56,804 nucleotides of DNA from a virus (Duplodnaviria; Caudoviricetes): IMG/VR virus record IMGVR_UViG_3300032318_001198, positions 1 to 56,804 of that record. One strand, written 5' to 3'. Positions within the stretch are counted from its first letter, which is position 1. Each line of letters starts with the position of its first letter. Position numbers and translations under genes: made by a program. The notes beneath the pieces are model-generated. The model ran no database searches. It was not told where the DNA came from and saw nothing but the letters and a program-made list of their open reading frames with translations. Positions 1 to 56,804 of the stretch are shown here, piece by piece.

Positions 1-14
1 CGGCTTCGCCACCC
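1..14. repeat. Left copy of 14-bp terminal direct repeat CGGCTTCGCCACCC (putative cos end)
   Basis: Identical to 56791-56804; reverse complement GGGTGGCGAAGCCG matches lambda cohesive end GGGCGGCGACCT at 8 of first 9 positions. Confidence 0.85.
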
Positions 15-13616: not shown

Positions 13617-13988
13617 TTATGCCACCTCCAGTTGAATAGGGAAAGTTTGCAAGGGAGCACTTGAGCGACGAGGGAACTCGTAGCTCTTGTAGGCGTGGGC
13701 TTGGTAGGCAATCTCTCCGAGTTGGTCACAGTAGACTCCCTTGACCTCTCCCTTGATAGTGACTTTCCCGCCCCGCTTGAATACCCGACGAACGATGTAA
13801 AGGTCGTTCTCGAGGTCGATAGTCACCGAATATCCGTAGCTGACTGGAAGAGTGATTCCAGTCTCACGATAAATTACCCGCCCGCCCGAGATGGCGAAAA
13901 GATTGTTTCGTCCGAGTTGGCTTACAATTACTTTAGCTTGTTCTAATGCATTCACTTTTGCTCCTCCGTTGTTGGTTGTTTCATTCAT
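13617..13988 (-). CDS. Hypothetical protein
   Basis: Directly downstream of promoter. Confidence 0.65.
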   Translation of the reverse strand: MNETTNNGGAKVNALEQAKVIVSQLGRNNLFAISGGRVIYRETGITLPVSYGYSVTIDLENDLYIVRRVFKRGGKVTIKGEVKGVYCDQLGEIAYQAHAYKSYEFPRRSSAPLQTFPIQLEVA

Positions 13989-14274
13989 TACTTGGATACT
14001 CTACATCGTCCGAAGCTGGTTGGCAAGCATAATCTTTTCTTATTTTATGCTCTCCCTGCCTCCAATGAAATGCTCCTAGGTCGTACCCAGCCCAATACGC
14101 TAATGAGTCCGCATCCTTTATTTTCCGCTCGTTCTGGCTTAAGGGAATATCAGTCTGCCAATAGGTTCGTCCGATAAAATATCCCAATGCGAAAGAGGAA
14201 CGCTCCGCCTCGCTTTGGCGGAGTCGTCCCTCTCCCTCTCCTACTGGTGATGGCTTGTAGGGGTGGTCTCTCAT
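13981..14274 (-). CDS. Hypothetical protein
   Basis: ATGA overlap; contains strong hairpin and a promoter so reality is uncertain. Confidence 0.35.
   Translation of the reverse strand: MRDHPYKPSPVGEGEGRLRQSEAERSSFALGYFIGRTYWQTDIPLSQNERKIKDADSLAYWAGYDLGAFHWRQGEHKIRKDYACQPASDDVEYPSNE
13998..14026 (-). promoter_or_regulatory. Early promoter with operator
   Basis: TTGCCA-17-TAGAGT. Confidence 0.7.
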
Positions 14275-14918
14275 CCTCCGCCCTCCACAAACGAGTTGGG
14301 CGAATTATTAACCCAACTATCTGTATAGCCCGAGGTTATCTCGAGTTTCTCGTTCACTTCTAGCGTGTAATTCGCTATGGTGATTTCAAGCTTAACCCAA
14401 GGCAGTTCCGCAACGTCTCGCAGAATTGGAAGGTAATAGGATGGGTTTGCCAGCCCTTCGTTTAGGTTTGATGATACGCTGTCTTGCACCAAGCTTTGAC
14501 CCGAGAACTTCAATTTATGCCCATTATATTCGAAAGAAAGATTTCTTCCGTAAAGGGGTTTTTGAAGTATGCGGATTATCTGGCTAGTCTTTCCTGCCGA
14601 TATGTTGCCTTGATTGGTTTTCGAACGAACCCGCACATCTACGGTTGAGTGGCGATCTGAATTATTTAGTGGGCGTATTACTTCCCGAACAAAATAGGGA
14701 ATATATTTAGGCACACTCCGCTTAAGGTCTTTTCCTCCTCCGTTGCCATCGTGAAGGAAGTCGAGGATTTTAATTGTTCCCACCGATGCCTCTCTGTTTT
14801 GCCGATAGAGCTTTTTTAGGATAGGAGCTTTGTGCTTATCATAATAGGCAGTCCATCGCTTATTCCTCAACGCTATTCGTTTTGGGGTGTTTGGATTATA
14901 TGTTGTTTTGTTGTTCAT
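14271..14918 (-). CDS. Hypothetical basic protein
   Basis: 215-aa ORF with AACCAAGAAAG leader. Confidence 0.65.
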   Translation of the reverse strand: MNNKTTYNPNTPKRIALRNKRWTAYYDKHKAPILKKLYRQNREASVGTIKILDFLHDGNGGGKDLKRSVPKYIPYFVREVIRPLNNSDRHSTVDVRVRSKTNQGNISAGKTSQIIRILQKPLYGRNLSFEYNGHKLKFSGQSLVQDSVSSNLNEGLANPSYYLPILRDVAELPWVKLEITIANYTLEVNEKLEITSGYTDSWVNNSPNSFVEGGG

Positions 14919-38869: not shown

Positions 38870-38901
38870 AAAAAGCCCCCTAGCGGTTAGGCTAGAGGGC
38901 T
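38870..38901 (-). terminator. Rho-independent terminator after major capsid gene
   Basis: AGCCCTCTAGC-CTAACC-GCTAGGGGGCT-TTTT. Confidence 0.85.
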
Positions 38902-40262: not shown

Positions 40263-40796
40263 TTAGATAACACCGATTCCGCCAGCATTAAGTTCTTTAA
40301 TGTACTGGTCGTTATATTTACCAACACAAAGACGAAGTGATTCGCCCTTGGAGATGTTGTTTTGTTTCATCTCGAAATTTACTAACTCGGCAAAAGTTGT
40401 GGGAGCTTTAACTTCCAACTCACTTCCGCTCGCAATAGGAGCAGAAGCGATCTTGCCAAGTTCACGCTTGATCTCACCAAGAACGGCAGAGAGTTCAGTT
40501 GTAGCCGTGCTCTTAGCAGACATTTCAGCTTGAGAAGGATTCTCCTTATCTTTCTTGATTGTGGTCGTTGGCTGAGTTTCTTTCGTGTAAGGGAATGCAC
40601 CCATCTCTTCCTTATCGGTTCCTTCGCCCTTCATAGTTCCCTCCATCTTGGCAATACGATCTTCAATCGCACCTAGGCGTACATTGAGGGCTTCAAAATC
40701 AAAGGTTTCAAAGGTAGTTGTGGGCTTAAGAGCGTCTTGTGCACGGCTCTTAGCGTCAGTACCCTCGGTAATGTCGATATCGGGCTTTGTTTGCAT
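40263..40796 (-). CDS. Nested scaffold protein from internal start (Nu3-like)
   Basis: In-frame ATG (MQTKPD) preceded by TTGACA-14 motif. Confidence 0.55.
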   Translation of the reverse strand: MQTKPDIDITEGTDAKSRAQDALKPTTTFETFDFEALNVRLGAIEDRIAKMEGTMKGEGTDKEEMGAFPYTKETQPTTTIKKDKENPSQAEMSAKSTATTELSAVLGEIKRELGKIASAPIASGSELEVKAPTTFAELVNFEMKQNNISKGESLRLCVGKYNDQYIKELNAGGIGVI

Positions 40797-41759
40797 ATCG
40801 TTAATGTTGCTGTCAACCGCTATACAACTATTTTTAGCAGAAAAAAGTCCTGTGGGGTTCGAAGCTGGATTCTGAACTAGGTCAGCAGAATACAATTCTG
40901 AGCATCGTGCCAAGTCTAATCCATCTAAGTTTTTCTCTGATTCACCCGAGAAGCTGATTGAGATTCCAAAACTTTCTGGAATAGATTTAGCTAAGTCCAT
41001 ATAATACTTAGCCCTCTCTGCTCTGCTATCTAAGAATGTTAAATCTGCCAATAGCTTAGTCCCGCTATCGTCGATTCTGAAATTGTTTAGCTTACCAATG
41101 ATGTCGCCAATCCCTGCTCCGTGATTTTCGTTTACCTTAACTCCGTTAGCATAGGACTCGGCACATTGTTTTACTTGTTCTAGCGTTACAGAATCGATCT
41201 CTAAGTTATGACCCTTTGCAGTTCCCGATGTTAGTACTGACACAGCGGGAATGGTGAATGAGGCAACTTGCGTTTCCTCTCCCTTCCTAACTGGTCGACG
41301 TTTAAGAATTGGAGTTCCGCCCCCTTCTTTTGTTCCAAGCTCTCCGTCATCGATCATCTCTGGTTCCTCTGGAGCGGTTTCCAAGGCAGGAGCGATAGGC
41401 TCGCTGTCTGTGCCAGCTTGATCATCTGAATTGTATTCTGCGTCCGCCTCTGACTCATAGATATCATTGCAAGCATCGATACGATCTTGCATATCGGGAT
41501 AGGCTTTAGCCATTGAAGCGTCCGCAATGAACCTCTTTATAAACTCGCTATAGGTTTCACCCGCCATAGGGGATAGGTCTGAGCCGTCATCCATATCACA
41601 GCAGGAACCAAAGTCTTTTGCGTGGTTCTTTAGGATGCTTTTCCCAACCGCATATCTCTGTTTCTTATCGGGATACTCCTTGATAAAAGAGGCATTGCCC
41701 ATAATTTTATTCATATAGTCTTCGCTAGTTTGTTTAGGTTTGGGTTTTAAGAGGGGCAT
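40263..41759 (-). CDS. Prohead protease/scaffold fusion
   Basis: G.AKGH, ENH, FGISISF, SADLV.NPASNP.GLFS; acidic helical C-terminus. Confidence 0.75.
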   Translation of the reverse strand: MPLLKPKPKQTSEDYMNKIMGNASFIKEYPDKKQRYAVGKSILKNHAKDFGSCCDMDDGSDLSPMAGETYSEFIKRFIADASMAKAYPDMQDRIDACNDIYESEADAEYNSDDQAGTDSEPIAPALETAPEEPEMIDDGELGTKEGGGTPILKRRPVRKGEETQVASFTIPAVSVLTSGTAKGHNLEIDSVTLEQVKQCAESYANGVKVNENHGAGIGDIIGKLNNFRIDDSGTKLLADLTFLDSRAERAKYYMDLAKSIPESFGISISFSGESEKNLDGLDLARCSELYSADLVQNPASNPTGLFSAKNSCIAVDSNINDMQTKPDIDITEGTDAKSRAQDALKPTTTFETFDFEALNVRLGAIEDRIAKMEGTMKGEGTDKEEMGAFPYTKETQPTTTIKKDKENPSQAEMSAKSTATTELSAVLGEIKRELGKIASAPIASGSELEVKAPTTFAELVNFEMKQNNISKGESLRLCVGKYNDQYIKELNAGGIGVI

Positions 41760-41819
41760 ACCAAGTTGTATCTGTCAACTTGCTATACGTATAGTAGTTA
41801 AAGTTCTCTATATGTACGC

Positions 41820-41930
41820 AAAAATCCCTCGGCCACACAAGGCGGACGAGGGACTAGTGCGATGGGTTAAATGCTAGGGGAAAAAGCAACCCTAGTTTCG
41901 GAGCATTCCTCCGAATATAACCATCACATC
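41820..41930 (-). ncRNA. Candidate structured small RNA with terminator
   Basis: Three-way junction plus GC hairpin/U-tract in a 250-bp intergenic gap, -10-like boxes upstream. Confidence 0.6.
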
Positions 41931-42012
41931 GATTCTAGTATATAAAATACAACTGCAAATAATCCTAAGTAGAAAAAACTCGCTACTATCCATCCTTTCA
42001 AAAAGTCTGCAT

Positions 42013-42273
42013 TCATTTCTGGTTACTCCTTATATGGTTTACTAGTCCTGCTAGTTTTTGTTCTATGATTCCTCTGCACCGAGAAATTGCCTCTAGCTCA
42101 CTCCGAGCATATATCGCAGTCGGGAATATCTTTAGCCATCTGCGATTATAAACGTTATAGAGGGAATACCCATTTTTCTTTTTAGAATCTCCTACCTCTA
42201 CGGCGTGCCGAACGTCGAGTAGGCTGGAGCCTCCAATCATTTGAACACCCTCTGCTAGTTGATCTAATCTCAT
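42013..42273 (-). CDS. Hypothetical protein
   Basis: GGAGG SD upstream. Confidence 0.55.
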   Translation of the reverse strand: MRLDQLAEGVQMIGGSSLLDVRHAVEVGDSKKKNGYSLYNVYNRRWLKIFPTAIYARSELEAISRCRGIIEQKLAGLVNHIRSNQK

Positions 42274-44324: not shown

Positions 44325-44855
44325 CTAGGAGACTATCCAGCGGAGATTCTTGTCCGCATCTGATCTACTCTCATTTTTGGCGAGTCTTACGCAATCAGAT
44401 AAGGTTTTATTGCTTTTTATGTTCTCGATTTTTGTCTTCCGCCCTAGGAGAAATGTTGGTGACTGGTCACTCCCTCTCGTAGTTGCCCTATGCCGTAAGG
44501 TCTCCTCGTCCGCTGATAGTATTAAGATGCGTAGGATTGTGTTTGGGAGCGATTGTAGGGCTTCTAGGAATGAAGAATTAAAAAGCCTATCTCCCTCGAA
44601 TATCAAATTCCCCTTGGTGCGTTTAATAAACTCAAGTGCGTATGGGGCGATTGAGAATGAAAACTTATCAGTTCCAGAAAAGAGTTCCTTTTTGTCGTAT
44701 ATTCCAAGGACATAGGAACCAAGAAAAGGATTGTAAAGATGGGGTACGCTGTGATGTATGTAGGGTTTCCAGCCATCAGTCATAGCTAGGTATTGGCGAA
44801 CCAAAGAAGTTTTGCCCGAGCTAGGCACTCCACCGATGGCAGTTATCACTCTCAT
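44325..44855 (-). CDS. P-loop nucleotide kinase of the type linked to phage base-modification systems
   Basis: GGVPSSGKT, F.GTD..S, FEGDRL, RGS.Q...F..GR.TK. Confidence 0.7.
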   Translation of the reverse strand: MRVITAIGGVPSSGKTSLVRQYLAMTDGWKPYIHHSVPHLYNPFLGSYVLGIYDKKELFSGTDKFSFSIAPYALEFIKRTKGNLIFEGDRLFNSSFLEALQSLPNTILRILILSADEETLRHRATTRGSDQSPTFLLGRKTKIENIKSNKTLSDCVRLAKNESRSDADKNLRWIVS

Positions 44856-45107
44856 CGAAGTATCCAGAATCTATTTTATTTTTTTTCTTTTCTACTAGGG
44901 GATTCGTAGAGAGGATTTAGTTCGAGTCGTTCGGGGCACACCGCTTAGTTCAAATGGCTTTATGATCTCGAATTAAATAAAAAAACAATAAAAAAAACCT
45001 TTAATATGTATTTCCTTATGAAAGTAAAACTATCTATGTCTGATCTCTTAACCTCTTGGGGGGATAGTAAGGGGGGAGAATTTTAGTACGTCAAGCTTAT
45101 TCTGATT

Positions 45108-45287
45108 TTACTCAAGAGATTTAATTTTAGGCTTATCTTTTTCTCCGCCTTGAATGACTGCGGTGGGGATGGTCGACGGAGGAGTTACTCCAGTCATAAG
45201 GTCTTCCTTTTTGGGGTGGAAAATTTCAATATCATTGTCCCAATTCATACGATTTTCGAACGTATTTTCATCCCATTTGTTCTTCAT
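45108..45287 (-). CDS. Small protein downstream of ART, candidate immunity (59 aa, not in ORF track)
   Basis: ATGA overlap with ART gene stop; MKNKWDENTFENRMNWDNDIEIF. Confidence 0.5.
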   Translation of the reverse strand: MKNKWDENTFENRMNWDNDIEIFHPKKEDLMTGVTPPSTIPTAVIQGGEKDKPKIKSLE

Positions 45288-47539
45288 AGTAATTCTACCT
45301 TAGCAGAAACTAGATTTCCTACAACCTCTGGTTCCTTGGTTCCAGTTAAATTACTTTGATAAAGCGGTACTCTTGTGATTTCAGTAACTCGAAAACGTGA
45401 TTTCCTTGGAAGAATAACCTCTTGCTCTTTGGACATACTCCCAGCATTCATAAACCTTGGTACTGCCATTCCCCTGCCTTTTGCTTTGTTTATGGTTAGG
45501 TAGAGTCTCGATTTCGTGTCTCCTACTAATGGATTAACCAAAAACCCATTTCCGTTCTTTGCCATATCTTTGAAAAGGTCACTCTCGAAGAATGATGTAT
45601 CCTTATAAACATTTGATTTACCGAAAGCAGACTTTACCGCTTTTGCATCCATTTTTCCAAATTGCCCATTTTTATTATACGTACTTATCTCTTTAAGGGG
45701 GTTGCCGTCTCCGTATTCATCTATTCCTATTAGATTTGTATACAACTGACTAAGACTGGCGAACTTTGCACCGACATATGCATCCCGAGATGTCGAAACA
45801 AATCCTTTGTCTACAAACTCGGAACCAACTTGGAGCGTTGAAGCAAGCTCTCTTGTTTGTGATTGAGTTTTATTTTTTGCGTGTTTTGCTTGGTCTTCGG
45901 TCATCCCACGATAAATAGTGGATTGTTCATTATTTGGGAAAATCTTTATGGCTTTATCAAGTAGTTCTTTTTTGTCGCCGATGGTAAAGTCTGGAGAGTT
46001 CGGGTCTTTTTCTGGCTCAGAACGACTTTCACTATTCATAAGTATTGAGCCACTACCAGTATAATCAGCTACGGCATTTATCATTTCGTCTGACTTATTT
46101 TGAAGTTCAACCGATGTGTCTGCTCCGAGTCCGTCTTTCGCTACTGCCTCACTCCATTGCTTTGCTTCTCTTTGGTTTTCTGGTCTATCCATTTCTAGGT
46201 TGGGATTATCTAAAATCTTGGAGTACACCCATTCTGCTTCCTGCTTGATAGATGTATACCCCTCTCCTACTCCGCTCTTGCCCTCTCCCCTGCCTCTTCC
46301 CGAGTCGCCACCTCCAGTCCACTTACCACTTTCATCCCGATTTTGTAGCGGGTCGTATTCAAAGCTAGTCGTTATGCAGAAGTCCTTCTGATTTGTAACT
46401 TCTTCTTTGATTGCAACCAATATCTCGTCGGTAATATAATCTGCGATCTCCGAGTCGGAGGGAGTTCTGGCTAAAGTAACTACTGAACCCATAGCCTGAA
46501 AACGAGCAATACCCTTACTGGAACTTCGCCCTTGCTGTGAATTATACTCCTTTACCGCTCCCTTAATAAAACCCGCAATCCCAGCACCCGCAATTAACTC
46601 CCCCCCGAGGGCTGGATTTATTAACGCACCAATCAATATCTTATAACGATGGCTTTGTACGCTAGCGACTGATTCAATCCCTCCCTTGTAGGCGATCTTT
46701 AATGCCTTCGATATGTTGTCTCTAAGATCACGTCCTGCTGGTGATTGAAGATAGTCTCTAATCTCTCCAGCCTTACTCGCTCCGTATTGTGCCTTAATCT
46801 TCGCACCTTCTGCAATCCGCCTCAATGCCCCTTTCTTTTCCTCAACCCCCTTAGCAGGGGCATCCTTGGTCGTTTTTGAGCCATCCCCGCCCTTGGAGCA
46901 AGTGTTGCCCGCCTTGAATCCTCCGCTACCAGTACCACAGTCTAACTCAAGGAGGTCTCCGTCTCCAAAGATAGCCCCGAGAAGGTCTCCGTCTGCCTCT
47001 CTGTAAGACTTCTTAACCTCGCCTCCTCCAGCCATTTTTAGAAATTTATTAACCCGAGCGATAGCCCAAGCATTACGAGAATTAGGTGCACCTCCGCTTA
47101 TGGTCGGTCTGTAGCTAGTAGAAAAAGCTCCCGCACCCCTACGAAAGACTTTTTTCAAAGTTCCGAGAGAGGGAGCGTTGCGGTTGGGATGCCTTTTCTT
47201 GAAGTCGGCAATCTTGTTTCTAAGGGTTTCCTCTACTTGCTCCGATACTTCGATGCCTCCAGATTCGCTTCTTGTCGATGCCGTGCCCTGCGGGTTTTTT
47301 TCGGAACCTTTGATTCTGTCTTTTTTTGGTGCGGGTGTTTGAGAAATAGTTCGGGCAAGTTCTTCGATCTTATGAGGCAACTTAGCACCAGTCATCTTCT
47401 CGTATTCCTCCGCCCCGAACATCGCTATAGCGTCTTTAATCCGCTCCTCCTGCGTCTTGTTGAGTTGCTCAATAAGCCCATCAACGTAGTCGTCGTCCTG
47501 CTTCTTGTAAGCCTTATCGATTTCAGAAAGCTGTTGCAT
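45284..47539 (-). CDS. Multidomain virion effector with C-terminal R-S-E ADP-ribosyltransferase
   Basis: IYRG, FVSTS, EQEV; linkers DCGTGSGGFKAGNTC and YDPLQNRDESGKW. Confidence 0.8.
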   Translation of the reverse strand: MQQLSEIDKAYKKQDDDYVDGLIEQLNKTQEERIKDAIAMFGAEEYEKMTGAKLPHKIEELARTISQTPAPKKDRIKGSEKNPQGTASTRSESGGIEVSEQVEETLRNKIADFKKRHPNRNAPSLGTLKKVFRRGAGAFSTSYRPTISGGAPNSRNAWAIARVNKFLKMAGGGEVKKSYREADGDLLGAIFGDGDLLELDCGTGSGGFKAGNTCSKGGDGSKTTKDAPAKGVEEKKGALRRIAEGAKIKAQYGASKAGEIRDYLQSPAGRDLRDNISKALKIAYKGGIESVASVQSHRYKILIGALINPALGGELIAGAGIAGFIKGAVKEYNSQQGRSSSKGIARFQAMGSVVTLARTPSDSEIADYITDEILVAIKEEVTNQKDFCITTSFEYDPLQNRDESGKWTGGGDSGRGRGEGKSGVGEGYTSIKQEAEWVYSKILDNPNLEMDRPENQREAKQWSEAVAKDGLGADTSVELQNKSDEMINAVADYTGSGSILMNSESRSEPEKDPNSPDFTIGDKKELLDKAIKIFPNNEQSTIYRGMTEDQAKHAKNKTQSQTRELASTLQVGSEFVDKGFVSTSRDAYVGAKFASLSQLYTNLIGIDEYGDGNPLKEISTYNKNGQFGKMDAKAVKSAFGKSNVYKDTSFFESDLFKDMAKNGNGFLVNPLVGDTKSRLYLTINKAKGRGMAVPRFMNAGSMSKEQEVILPRKSRFRVTEITRVPLYQSNLTGTKEPEVVGNLVSAKVELL

Positions 47540-49817
47540 AAGTCTCCTTCACTCTTGGTGTTTGGCCTTTGCTCTTGTCTGCGTTGCCGTCTATTTGATA
47601 GCCAATATCTGCAATCCCACCATCCGTTAGCCTTCTCCAAGTGCCCAAGGCTTGTACTGCTGAACCCTTGATATAGCCATAAGGAACGTAGCGTCCGTTC
47701 GGTTTTGCAAATCTTTTACCCGCCCGAGTAAGTGCGTTCTTATCATTTACGTCAACGTGCACAATTCCAATTTTATAGCCCCACGACTTAAGAAGGTTAG
47801 CCATCCCTTCAACCTTACCAGTATTTTTACCAGTAATATCGATAATCATATTGTGACGAGCACCCATAGCCATAGGAAAGATTTGCTTCTCTGAGATGAA
47901 TGAACTCTCTTCGTGAAAAGCTCCAGCGTTCCATCCTTCATATCCCTTAAGCTGTGCCTTGACTGCGTCGGGGTCAATGATTGTTACTTGCTTGCCTCCT
48001 AGAATCTTGTCTGCATAGGGTCTGCCCACGGTTGTTTTGCCCGAGGCTGGAGAACCCATAAGAATAACCGCAATAGGATTTTCGGATACCGCTTTTGGGT
48101 TTAGCTGAGATTCAATAATCTTCTTATTGTATTCTTTTGTTTCTTTCGTTGGATTTTGAAAGGTCTGCACGATGTCTGCTGATTGTTTGTACTTGCTTGG
48201 GTCTCTTAGACTCCAATGCGTTACTGAGGCTAATTTATTATTTTCATCCTTAGCAACCTTCGCCTGCAATACTGCCATCTTCTTTAGGGTTTCAACTACT
48301 TTTGGGTCTCGATTTAATTTGTCTATAAGTCTTTGGGCTTGTCTTTCGTTTCTGGCTTCTTGTGCTTTTGTAGCCCTTCCTCCCCCTCCGCCACCCGAAC
48401 CGCTCCATCTGCCCCTCTCGTCCCTCTGCTGAGAGGGGTCGTAAAACTCTATCGGAGTGTAGCCCCTGTAATAATGTAGCCTGCCCCTTTGGAGGGAGTG
48501 GTGAATACGAGTCGGGAATTTTGTTTCGTAGCTTCGGATATTTTCTTGGTAAGCTCGTTCTCCGTCTTCTCTGGTATCTCCACCGATAAACTCGCCAACA
48601 CCTCTGACTGAAATTGCTGTTGCATTTAATGCTCCTAGTATATTGGAAACTTTAGTCAACAAGGACGCTCCTTGGTCAAGGATAGTTACGTTTGTCTTCT
48701 TTTCGTTTCCCACCAAAGTTCTAAATTTGATTCCATTTTCTGTCAATACCTTTCTAACTTCTCCCATTCCAAGCTGAGATGTAATTTTATGAAGAATGTC
48801 GTTTCCATTTTCTTTTTCTTCAAACGCTATGACTGCTTTTTGTTGTAGCTTTGAGCCTAGCTTAGATGCTGTATATTTAATCTGGTCAAAGTCCTCTCCC
48901 TTAACCTTCATAATAATGGAGTCTTCCGCACCATCTTCCCAATCTCCAACTCCACTCTCCATCTCTGCCGTCATCTTCTGCTTTTCGATTATGCTCTTAG
49001 CCATCTTCACAGCCTCAGCGTGTTTTGGGCTATCCTTTTCCGCAACTGCCTGCGGAAAGGTCATATCTTCCCTAGTATTTGGAGATACCATAATCTCACC
49101 GCTTCCAGTCCATCTACCGCTCGAATCCCTATCCTGCGATGGGTCGTAGAATGCAATCCTACTTTTTATAGGCTCCTGAATTAGAATAGGCACATAGATT
49201 AATCCCTCTTCACTTGCTAGGTTTTTTACTGCAAGAGGCTTTGGTTTGCTTCCGTTCTCGTAGATATATTTTCTAACACTATCAATATCAAATATCGACA
49301 TAGTCTTTATGTTCCGAGGATGTACCGAGCCGTCTTTTACAAATATCTTAGAAACTGCGGCCATACCAGTCTTGCCCATCATTTGTGATTTCTTGCTTGG
49401 GATATTATCTGCCACGCTTTTGAACCCTTCGGCCAATATGCCGATGATTCCTATAAGTTGTTTGCCACCGATTTTGCTAGTTTTTCCACCACGCAACGCT
49501 CCGTATTCCATCGCCAAGTCCATTGAGTCCGTAGAATATACTTTTCCTCCACCCCATACGCCTTCCTTGCTTGGTTTAATTCCCTGCTCTCGAATCGACT
49601 TTAATGCCTGAGCAGAAGTTCCGTGATAAAGCATCGTTGTCTTCTCACCAGTTTCCTTGCTAGCCCTCTCTGGATTATCTTGTGCCCACTTGGGAGTAGT
49701 AGTCTGAGCATTCGAACCCGAACCTCCACCCGAACCAGTCCACCTCCCACTAGAGTCACGATCTTGCGATGGGTCGTAGAAATTGATCTGCCTTGAATTA
49801 TAGCAAAGCGAGATCAT
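47523..49817 (-). CDS. Multidomain virion effector: H-Y ART-like, unknown domain, zeta-toxin-like kinase
   Basis: LYHGTS..VY; GSPASGKT, IDPD, HEESS; three FYDPSQ.RD..GRW repeats. Confidence 0.8.
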   Translation of the reverse strand: MISLCYNSRQINFYDPSQDRDSSGRWTGSGGGSGSNAQTTTPKWAQDNPERASKETGEKTTMLYHGTSAQALKSIREQGIKPSKEGVWGGGKVYSTDSMDLAMEYGALRGGKTSKIGGKQLIGIIGILAEGFKSVADNIPSKKSQMMGKTGMAAVSKIFVKDGSVHPRNIKTMSIFDIDSVRKYIYENGSKPKPLAVKNLASEEGLIYVPILIQEPIKSRIAFYDPSQDRDSSGRWTGSGEIMVSPNTREDMTFPQAVAEKDSPKHAEAVKMAKSIIEKQKMTAEMESGVGDWEDGAEDSIIMKVKGEDFDQIKYTASKLGSKLQQKAVIAFEEKENGNDILHKITSQLGMGEVRKVLTENGIKFRTLVGNEKKTNVTILDQGASLLTKVSNILGALNATAISVRGVGEFIGGDTREDGERAYQENIRSYETKFPTRIHHSLQRGRLHYYRGYTPIEFYDPSQQRDERGRWSGSGGGGGGRATKAQEARNERQAQRLIDKLNRDPKVVETLKKMAVLQAKVAKDENNKLASVTHWSLRDPSKYKQSADIVQTFQNPTKETKEYNKKIIESQLNPKAVSENPIAVILMGSPASGKTTVGRPYADKILGGKQVTIIDPDAVKAQLKGYEGWNAGAFHEESSFISEKQIFPMAMGARHNMIIDITGKNTGKVEGMANLLKSWGYKIGIVHVDVNDKNALTRAGKRFAKPNGRYVPYGYIKGSAVQALGTWRRLTDGGIADIGYQIDGNADKSKGQTPRVKETYATAF

Positions 49818-49822
49818 CTAAG

Positions 49823-51832
49823 TTATTTTCCTTCTCTGGCTTTGTTTAGTTGGTCTACGACAACCTTTGATCTGGCGAACCCTGCGTCTCCACCCCATCC
49901 GTTCCAAGCTTGCCACCCCTTACCCTTCTCATCCCAACTGCTTCCCTGCTTATCGACTTCGTGACGAGTAAAGAAATTCTTCATACGCCTCCAGCTTCTA
50001 GGGGATAATCTCTTGGCATTGATTATGTCTCTTGCCCTAGCAACGCCAACTTGTGTCATTCCCCGCTGGCTAGCTGGTTTCGTCGCACGCACTCGTAGTG
50101 CTGACTTTGCGGACTCAATCATTCCAGCGTTGGGAGATAAATCTATATCACCAACTGCCTGCATCTCGATAGCGTCCAAGATCATCTCAGCTTCTCTAGT
50201 CGTGATAGCCTTCGGTGTTCGCCTTGCTCTGGTTGGAACTTCCTCTTCGGTGTCTTCTTCTTTGTCGTCTACTTCCGATTCATCATTTGTGTTAGGCACG
50301 TCTGGCAATTTGGCCTCCGCCACGGAGGGCAATGGGGCTTGGGGCGGAGCAGTCGGCTCAGAGGGCTTAAAAGAGTCTGAAATACTTTCGATAGGTATTT
50401 CCATTTCTTGAGCAAGGTCGGTTGCAATACGGACTTCCTTTGCTCTTTGTCTGATAGATTCCTCATAGTCTTCTCCTTTGCTTCCGTAAATTTCAGTCAT
50501 TGTTCGGAGTCCAGCTTTGAACTCAGCGATGGCACTCTGTGAGTCACGCCCTACGTCTATGGTTGGGTCGGCGGGATATATCCATTTGCCATTTCTATAG
50601 TTAGCACTTGGAGGGATTTCCCCTTTGCTCATTCCGTCTGCGAGCACCAAGTTCTTAACCCTGTCAAAAAATCTATCTTCCATAATTGACTGCCAACGTT
50701 TGAAGGTTCTGGAAGCGAGGGACATTTCCAGCCTCACGGTTGGGCCGCCGAGCTTAGAAAGGTCGTAGCAAAAACCGAATGGGAGGTTGAATGCTAAGGC
50801 AATCAAATGAACCATTAAGTCCACATACCCTTGGAAAGCCGAGGAGGGACGATTACTTTCGAACATTTTCATTTCGCTACCCGAGGGCAAGTAGTTGATC
50901 TGCGACTTCTGCATCGTCTCGAGATTCGTTAGGTTGCCGTATGCGTCTGTGTTGGCTTGGTTAAAATATGAGGATGGGTCGTCTGCTTGTCCGCTGGTGT
51001 TGGCGATGGTCATAATCCGCATCGCCGCGTTCTTGACTGCCATTTGCTCTGCGTCGAGCGTCTCCTGCAAGTCCTTACATTGATTAATGATTGATGCTAG
51101 ATGGCTACGTCCACGCACTTCGTCGAGCCTTAAGGGGTCATAGATTAGGAGGAAAGACTGAGCGGGAACTATCTGCGGGTCGGTATAAGAGTTACCTTGT
51201 GTTCGACGATAAACTTTGTATCCAGTTGTCTTTCCGTTTGGGTCAAAGCAAACTCCCCCGATATATTCTTGGTTAGCTGTCGGCACATCTATGTTTCCAC
51301 CAATACGATCTGCCTCTACGCTTTGTAGTGCTAAAGGGCTATTTGGGTCTGCGATTCCATTCGAGGTCTCTTGTCTGGTAATTACGAACCCAACGTCTCC
51401 ATCTCTAAGCACAGAGCGGAGGGCGAGGTGGGATAAGGAATGGAAGTTGTGTCGCCCTAAGTAATCGGCTTTCTTGCACCAGTTCTCCCAATACTTTTCG
51501 TAAGCGTCATCTATCTGGTTATCTCCAGTCCTACTAGAGTAGCGAAACTGCCCGAGGGCATACTGACTGAACTTCAAAAGGATGCTACGAATGATTGAGT
51601 TGTTGTCCTCTAGGTCACGTGCCGCACGTATCAACTGAATGCGTTCGAACGTTGAAGAGAATCCCTCTCCGCCACTTAGTATTCTGGATGGTGCACGATC
51701 TGTAAGGGTATACGCACCAGCAAATCTGTTGAACTCCACTAACTTACATTTGTCTGCTAAACGTTTGATTCCAAAGGCGGGATTTACCGAGGATACAATT
51801 TTCTCTATGAAGTTCAGGTTGGGCATATGCAA
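49823..51832 (-). CDS. Portal protein (lambda family) with C-terminal extra domain
   Basis: ARDL..NN, DGDV, EADRI, RG.S.L, IDVGRD; start probably 51826. Confidence 0.9.
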   Translation of the reverse strand: MHMPNLNFIEKIVSSVNPAFGIKRLADKCKLVEFNRFAGAYTLTDRAPSRILSGGEGFSSTFERIQLIRAARDLEDNNSIIRSILLKFSQYALGQFRYSSRTGDNQIDDAYEKYWENWCKKADYLGRHNFHSLSHLALRSVLRDGDVGFVITRQETSNGIADPNSPLALQSVEADRIGGNIDVPTANQEYIGGVCFDPNGKTTGYKVYRRTQGNSYTDPQIVPAQSFLLIYDPLRLDEVRGRSHLASIINQCKDLQETLDAEQMAVKNAAMRIMTIANTSGQADDPSSYFNQANTDAYGNLTNLETMQKSQINYLPSGSEMKMFESNRPSSAFQGYVDLMVHLIALAFNLPFGFCYDLSKLGGPTVRLEMSLASRTFKRWQSIMEDRFFDRVKNLVLADGMSKGEIPPSANYRNGKWIYPADPTIDVGRDSQSAIAEFKAGLRTMTEIYGSKGEDYEESIRQRAKEVRIATDLAQEMEIPIESISDSFKPSEPTAPPQAPLPSVAEAKLPDVPNTNDESEVDDKEEDTEEEVPTRARRTPKAITTREAEMILDAIEMQAVGDIDLSPNAGMIESAKSALRVRATKPASQRGMTQVGVARARDIINAKRLSPRSWRRMKNFFTRHEVDKQGSSWDEKGKGWQAWNGWGGDAGFARSKVVVDQLNKAREGK

Positions 51833-51860
51833 GGATTATACGTATAGTATTTTATATCAA

Positions 51861-56790: not shown

Positions 56791-56804
56791 CGGCTTCGCC
56801 ACCC
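56791..56804. repeat. Right copy of 14-bp terminal direct repeat
   Basis: Identical to 1-14; 48 bp upstream of terS. Confidence 0.85.

Follow-up and report, generated by a model that had tools for sequence, protein, structure and literature searches.

A structured element with a predicted intrinsic terminator upstream of the head genes of an uncultured freshwater phage

Introduction

Between a 30-aa ORF and the head genes of an uncultured freshwater phage lies a short stretch whose fold is exceptional for its genome. What is this stretch, an RNA of its own or the end of a longer transcript? A sequence-only reading of the virus record (56,804 bases; this whole stretch of DNA is called the window here) had described it as a stand-alone small RNA with a three-way junction upstream of a protease gene, and had considered an sRNA, an antitoxin or decoy RNA, and a packaging-related RNA. 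I analysed the fold of the element, the genes around it, the related loci, and the known systems that it resembles. The explanation preferred here, to which I give about an even chance, is that the upstream operon ends in this element, as a structured 3′ end that is specific to the lineage and as an insulating terminator. The features are collected in Table 1.

Table 1. Features of the element and its neighbourhood (window coordinates; − is the strand of the genes)
Feature	Position	Strand	Description
30-aa hydrophobic ORF	41924..42016	−	AAGGAG ribosome-binding site; start overlaps the upstream stop (ATGA)
Sigma-70-like site TTTGCA-16-TAGAAT	41932..41959	−	9/12 matches; inside the 30-aa ORF; predicted start ~41925
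P1, 5′ arm	41918..41928	−	pair probabilities 0.29-0.80; covers the last codon and TGA stop of the 30-aa ORF
P2 hairpin	41897..41915	−	41915-41909 with 41903-41897, 7 bp, loop GAAUG; pair probabilities 0.68-1.0
P3 hairpin	41874..41895	−	41895-41890 with 41879-41874, 6 bp; pair probabilities 0.97-0.99
P1, 3′ arm	41858..41869	−	partner of 41928-41918
Predicted intrinsic terminator of the element	41820..41854	−	stem 41853-41847 with 41831-41825, inner CCGC/GUGG helix (7 + 4 bp)
Conserved site	41757..41794	−	palindrome CTATACGTATAG 41794-41783, TTGACA 41778-41773, ATG 41759-41757 of the head-module gene
498-aa conserved head-module gene	40263..41759	−	followed by the 113-aa cement-like gene and the 317-aa major head protein gene
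Second strong intrinsic terminator (predicted)	38874..38901	−	directly 3′ of the gene for the major head protein; end of the three-gene head cassette

The phage and its gene order

The two ends of the window (1-14 and 56791-56804) form a 14-base direct repeat and are contiguous within one MAG contig (G001:C158). Since the ends share the repeat and are joined in that contig, the phage genome is probably complete, with a circular map of about 56.79 kb when closed, although the classification of the record is linear, with a completeness of 68%. The MAG that contains the joined ends is titled Betaproteobacteria bacterium. This gives a weak hint at a betaproteobacterial host, because two all-phage contigs were binned into the MAG. 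GenBank phages gave neither a DNA match nor a protein match with the major head and 498-aa proteins, and the phage therefore has no cultured relative.

All of the large ORFs listed for the window are on the minus strand. In this direction, the genes for the small terminase, the large terminase, and the portal are followed by those for two large proteins with toxin-type domains and an amidoligase-like protein. Then come the genes for proteins of 285, 86, and 30 aa, the structured element, and the 498-aa gene. The 113-aa cement-like protein, the 317-aa major head protein, and a strong terminator end this order, and after the terminator there are glycosyltransferases, tail genes, and lysis and recombination genes. 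The 498-aa protein had been called a protease by the sequence-only reading. It has no Pfam, PHROGs, or PDB profile match, and a structure prediction from an 18-sequence alignment was unusable (mean pLDDT 45). From where its gene lies, ahead of those for the cement-like and major head proteins, it may be a scaffold or a scaffold-protease.

The two large proteins are encoded directly 3′ of the portal gene (45284-47539 and 47523-49817, minus strand). The 751-aa protein has an ADP-ribosyltransferase exoenzyme domain, while the 764-aa protein has a Zeta-toxin kinase domain and a weak PARP-like match. Their gene position suggests that they are head-associated and possibly ejected. The 751-aa and 176-aa genes are separated by an AT-rich gap of 429 nt with long T-runs and without an ORF (44855-45284, minus strand). 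The portal-side operon could be split there by promoters or by a terminator. Such a gap may break the upstream transcription unit, which counts against reading the element as the 3′ end of that unit.

A strongly folded element on the gene strand

From 41928 to 41820 on the minus strand, two very stable hairpins (P2 and P3) and a weaker closing helix (P1) form a three-way junction, which is followed by a canonical intrinsic terminator. Every helix named by the sequence-only reading was recovered on this strand by a sequence check and by RNAfold, which gave the same architecture. P1 has 11 pairs with one bulged C and one G.U pair, the P3 loop is pyrimidine-rich and 10 nt long, and the helices are joined by strands of 2, 1, and 4 nt. 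The 126-nt stretch folds with −47.9 kcal/mol (z −4.38) and the 75-nt junction alone with −27.4 kcal/mol (z −4.47); none of 200 dinucleotide shuffles was as good in the former case, nor any of 200 shuffles in the latter. Thus, the earlier description of a strongly structured, ORF-free element of RNA type with a terminator on the gene strand was borne out. I also scanned the genome in 7,560 windows of 115 nt on both strands, with energies regressed on GC content. The element ranked second at −3.9 sd. The 115-nt stretch that folds best in the whole window (14180-14294, minus strand; GC-corrected, −4.3 sd) consists of clustered GC-rich hairpins in coding sequence, where the ORFs 13981-14274 and 14271-14918 meet.

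P2, P3, and the terminator pair with probabilities of about 1.0, while P1 is softer and has alternative registers. When the P2-P3 core was kept and its flanks were shuffled or replaced by foreign sequence from elsewhere in the window, 72 of 2000 and 90 of 2000 trials folded as well. The P1 closing helix, and hence the three-way junction, is the least certain part of the fold. The robust core is three consecutive strong hairpins in a 165-nt gap, and closure into a three-way junction is likely, though no more than modestly beyond chance.

Is the element an RNA device at all? It might instead consist of DNA-level sites for protein binding or recombination, or be a neutral recent insert whose three-way closure is fortuitous. 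The plus strand has a fold of equal quality (z −4.85), the closing helix exceeds chance by a small margin in the trials above, relatives vary in what they have at this hotspot, and the element is an orphan. These points fit such a view. On the other hand, two G.U pairs (41926.41860 and 41843.41835) and the U-run exist on the gene strand only. The terminator stem is kept in a relative of 84% nucleotide identity, with changes in the loop alone, and the three strong hairpins in succession fill the 165-nt gap of a tightly packed genome. With these observations, I regard a mere DNA-level or neutral nature of the element as unlikely.

A small coupled gene ends inside the element

The upstream stop that is overlapped by the start of the 30-aa ORF belongs to the 86-aa gene, and the TGA stop of the 30-aa ORF itself (41926-41924) lies inside the P1 5′ arm. 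Hydrophobic ORFs of 29-32 aa are found at the same place in four relatives (L006, L082, L002, and L009), with an ATGA or GTGA overlap. Because of these positional homologues with the same overlap, the 30-aa ORF is a real gene, with a membrane protein as its predicted product. Since P1 begins in the stop codon of a real gene, the element is at least the 3′ UTR of that mRNA. The products of these small ORFs are of the single-helix kind, and those of the window and L082 have a common GW-I-x-ASFFY stretch.

The TATACT (41942-41937) and TAGAAT (41937-41932) boxes that had been noted just upstream of the RNA do exist there, but both are within the 30-aa ORF. The start predicted from the TTTGCA-16-TAGAAT site is no more than 3 nt from the base of P1. 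Promoter-like sites of this quality are not enriched in the whole window (77 found versus about 88 expected from shuffles). Thus, the boxes are a consensus match at chance-level frequency, although the placement of the predicted start is suggestive. The idea of a stand-alone RNA is not supported by these results, since the element begins in the stop codon of a conserved, translationally coupled small gene and its promoter boxes are at chance level.

What would a separate small RNA look like? It would start at about 41925 from a promoter in the 30-aa ORF, end at about 41820, be about 106 nt long, and act in trans, for example as a base-pairing regulator via the 10-nt P3 loop, as a protein sponge, or as a decoy. 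A start so close to P1 with a terminator at the other end is what such an RNA would have, and this placement speaks against the preferred 3′-end reading. The rank of the fold in the genome scan also suits a separate RNA, and phage small RNAs of such size from leader or tail regions are documented (PMC10914365, PMC7547250). In opposition to this, the promoter has 9 of 12 matches at the chance frequency given above, and the fold leaves almost no single-stranded seed. I compared four unpaired segments with 76 start regions of the phage. The best duplexes did not surpass those that shuffled segments form (shuffles that did at least as well: fractions of 0.25, 0.66, 0.72, and 0.12). Thus, an sRNA or decoy acting by loop pairing, as had been suggested, finds no complementarity to phage start regions above shuffled controls. 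A junction model described below finds the element in the window and in two copies of about 98% identity only, which is another point against an independent RNA. Such an RNA is a possible but rather unlikely explanation. A bolder version is decidedly unlikely: an RNA of about 106 nt from its own late promoter would be abundant, resistant to exonucleases, and the member of a new family that acts by its shape, and its terminator would also gate entry into the head cassette. For example, it might titrate a host RNA-binding protein or a defence sensor.

Predicted terminators on both sides of the head cassette

The terminator hairpin starts 70 nt past the stop codon of the 30-aa ORF, in the same orientation as the genes. 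It adds about −19 kcal/mol to the fold, with pair probabilities of 0.90-1.0. UUUUU follows directly after the stem (41824-41820), and a promoter/terminator scan lists the inner part of the hairpin. With a GC-rich hairpin, an immediate U-run, and a position after a gene, this is an intrinsic terminator by sequence criteria. The U-run has five U only, which counts against the 3′-end reading as well as against a separate small RNA. Terminator-like matches are not enriched overall (57 found versus about 51 expected). Among the listed minus-strand sites, two were judged to be intergenic and to have both a long GC-rich stem and a T-run directly after it, namely that of the element and that at 38901-38874. 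The three head genes are bracketed by these two sites, at 41820 and 38874.

These observations can be put together as follows. The upstream transcription unit would consist of the portal-side genes, with the 30-aa membrane-protein gene as the last one. While the polymerase coming from upstream transcribes P2 and P3, they would fold immediately. When the terminating ribosome leaves the stop codon, P1 could close the compact three-way junction. The GC-rich hairpin and U-run would then release the transcript at about 41820. In this way, the cassette of scaffold, decoration, and major head genes would be insulated from upstream transcription, and it has its own conserved control site and the terminator at 38874. 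The stacked 3′ helices would probably be a barrier to 3′ exonucleases, and a 3′ fragment of about 110 nt could accumulate, either as a by-product or as a small RNA that stems from the 3′ UTR. A difficulty for this 3′-end reading is that termination and 3′ protection would need no more than a plain terminator hairpin, which leaves the extra hairpins and the closing helix unexplained.

Is the element common among relatives?

Relatives were collected by scanning viral and metagenome contigs with the 498-aa protein. The scan gave a phage of about 98% identity (L005), a locus of 84% nucleotide identity (L008), and many loci of 45-55% protein identity. A pattern scan of a genome collection gave one match (L094), which is a near-identical phage copy inside a MAG. 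In L005 and L094, both about 98% identical to the window, the element is unchanged. L005 differs from the window at 102 of 6,497 positions (1.6%), none of which lies within 41668-41971. This could mean constraint beyond a simple terminator, and would then count against the 3′-end reading, although the test is weak because the differences are clustered. The contig of L008 starts within the terminator, of which it keeps the stem; its two differences are both in the loop.

More distant relatives have other things at the position of the element. L082 has a spacer of 24 nt, L002 and L009 have an abutting ORF, L006 has a different spacer without a special fold (z −1.24), and L092 has other hairpins; further relatives have an opposite-strand gene. 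The covariance model R1, which models the junction, finds the window, L005, and L094 only. There was no other match in the remaining 76 loci. All matches had E>1 in 15 further loci searched with filters off, and the best one among 33 loci taken from a 15-base P1/P2 pattern was a partial P1 match (E 0.2). R1 found nothing in 150 other genomes of the order of the MAG, which is the candidate host order. Exact or degenerate DNA patterns of the P2-P3 core and the terminator had no match in viral contigs, and the 285-aa upstream protein retrieved no relatives when used as a probe.

None of the 16 distinct distant relatives whose upstream region was readable showed conservation of the structure, and a lack of such conservation was one half of what the sequence-only reading had named as refuting it. 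A conserved aptamer was rejected on the same R1 search, which finds nothing upstream of the homologous gene in these 16. In these searches, the element is lineage-restricted, with the junction in near-identical phages only. The homologous site in relatives does without the junction, which fits an accessory end-of-operon element.

Comparison with known families and systems

No Rfam family matched the whole window at gathering thresholds, so the earlier remark that the RNA belongs to no known family stands. At E<=10 there were two sub-threshold noise matches only. One is freshwater-2 (18.5 bits versus a threshold of 49.9, E 2.2), which lies outside the element at 42014-42086; this match was treated as noise because a search of 10 related loci did not recover the motif. 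On the minus strand, the match spans the start of the 30-aa ORF together with its ribosome-binding site. The other is CbSR14 on the opposite strand (17.6 bits versus a threshold of 172). ARAGORN found no tRNA or tmRNA in the window.

The suggestion of an antitoxin did not survive, since the small ORF is kept without the RNA in L006, L082, L002, and L009. A type I toxin-antitoxin pair was rejected because the RNA and the peptide gene share one strand and the peptide gene is translationally coupled to the upstream gene. Mimicry of a CRISPR repeat by P2 was also considered. No arrays were seen in 401 genomes of the candidate host order, an order assigned from the binning of the phage contigs into a MAG. 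The P2 hairpin pattern had single matches in 2 of these genomes, one of them in the contig of this phage, while the reversed control pattern matched in 6.

A phage non-coding RNA built around a three-way junction is known in the phi29-type pRNA. The element is similar to it in size and in having such a junction. Unlike the pRNA, it is located mid-genome after a coding gene. The lack of a match to any Rfam family is a further difference and speaks against a packaging-related RNA, one of the earlier suggestions. Genes for a small terminase, a large terminase, and a portal are present; thus, the phage packages its DNA along the usual terminase route.

Purine-type riboswitches have a P1-P2-P3 three-way junction with an expression-platform terminator upstream of a gene. 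The element resembles them in its P1-P2-P3 junction, in an intrinsic terminator within 3 nt, and in its place upstream of a gene. In contrast to them, the strands that join its helices measure only 2, 1, and 4 nt, and antiterminator pairing, an Rfam match, and conservation were not found. In constrained folding with the terminator 3′ arm blocked, the 5′ arm stays unpaired and no competing structure forms. A riboswitch or attenuator is therefore unlikely, since there is no alternative partner for the 5′ arm and the junction strands are short. Antitermination of the lambda Q type was rejected too, because the 285-aa, 86-aa, and 30-aa upstream proteins have no Pfam or PHROG matches.

Could the element still be a conditional-termination leader of the head genes? 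Such a leader would be an attenuator, a riboswitch-like element, or an antitermination target, as in lambda PR′-tR′ with Q. Transcription of the head genes would require read-through, with the short RNA left as a by-product of termination. The order of a promoter-like site, a short structured RNA, a terminator, and late structural genes is that of such a leader. The PR′-tR′ RNA of Stx phages offers an analogy (PMC7547250), and so do the 42 terminators reported in 5′ UTRs of Pseudomonas phages (PMC10914365). Nevertheless, there is no mutually exclusive antiterminator fold, the junctions of 1-4 nt have no obvious ligand pocket, no Rfam riboswitch matched, and no antiterminator family was found by Pfam or PHROGs in the three upstream proteins. 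Moreover, the conserved control site lies 3′ of the terminator, and many relatives use this site without any terminator. Conditional termination is thus very improbable.

The preferred 3′-end reading has its nearest parallels in other phages. In PMC10914365, ncRNA1 and ncRNA2 of phage PAK_P3 are described as stable RNAs of 120-210 nt from 3′ regions without an own start site. Like these, the element has a GC-rich hairpin and U-run after the last gene of an operon, with extra structure 5′ of the terminator. Unlike them, it is a closed three-way junction over a stop codon and is known from sequence alone, and the likeness is one of description. The same paper gives 5′-UTR ncRNA candidates from premature termination in virulent Pseudomonas phages, with mapped start and stop sites and conservation within the genus, one of them upstream of the YuA major head gene (PMC10914365). 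The YuA candidate and the element are both short (<250 nt) structured RNAs between a promoter, or in the case of the element a promoter-like site, and a terminator just upstream of a head gene. They differ in that the promoter of the element is a weak consensus match in a coding gene, and in that a separate conserved control site lies between its terminator and the head gene. In Stx phages, the terminated late leader RNA became the regulator StxS, which binds Hfq and has a defined seed (PMC7547250). The element shares with the lambda/Stx PR′-tR′ RNA that it would be a short terminated RNA just upstream of late genes; in contrast to StxS, no Q-type antiterminator, seed, or target was found for it, and it has five U. 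Phage small RNAs are reviewed in PMC12197685.

The element would be a new orphan among the loosely defined structured RNAs of phage leaders and tails. If it is a structured operon end only, it is ordinary, and its main use would be for the transcription map of this uncultured lineage of freshwater phages, in which the head cassette is bracketed by two terminators with a conserved control site in front. If it is a separate stable three-way-junction RNA, it would be an orphan addition to the few ncRNAs of virulent phages, whose functions are mostly unknown, and a compact, naturally stable RNA scaffold.

A conserved control site in front of the head gene

A site with a palindrome, TTGACA, and the ATG of the 498-aa gene is shared by the window and every one of the 17 relatives whose upstream region was readable (L001-L003, L006, L008, L009, L012, L014, L080, L082, and L086-L092). 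Its general layout is CTAYAYRTRTAG, 0-4 nt, TTGACA, 13-14 nt, and ATGCC. The palindrome/TTGACA site occurs once per genome in each of the five related virus records searched. In many relatives, the neighbour upstream of the head gene is on the opposite strand and the site is still present; therefore, the head gene takes its start signals from the palindrome/TTGACA stretch. The site is conserved more broadly than the element and is arguably more informative. A sigma-70 promoter was rejected by inspection, since TTGACA is 13-14 nt from the ATG and no fitting −10 hexamer exists. The stretch may serve a regulator, in which case the leader would be very short or lacking. A second copy of the palindrome (51826-51848, minus strand) has 12 of 13 bases identical and lies 9 nt before an ATGCCC start of the portal gene.

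In the window, the AUG of the head gene is within a hairpin of −13.8 kcal/mol (41757-41790, minus strand; 7 + 5 bp), with most of TTGACA in the loop. This hairpin is weaker or absent in relatives; of 18 minimum-energy folds, 8 leave no base of the AUG unpaired. In L008 (1-127), there are about 36 extra bases between the terminator and the palindrome, and three ATATAG-like half-sites stand in a row, compared with two in the window.
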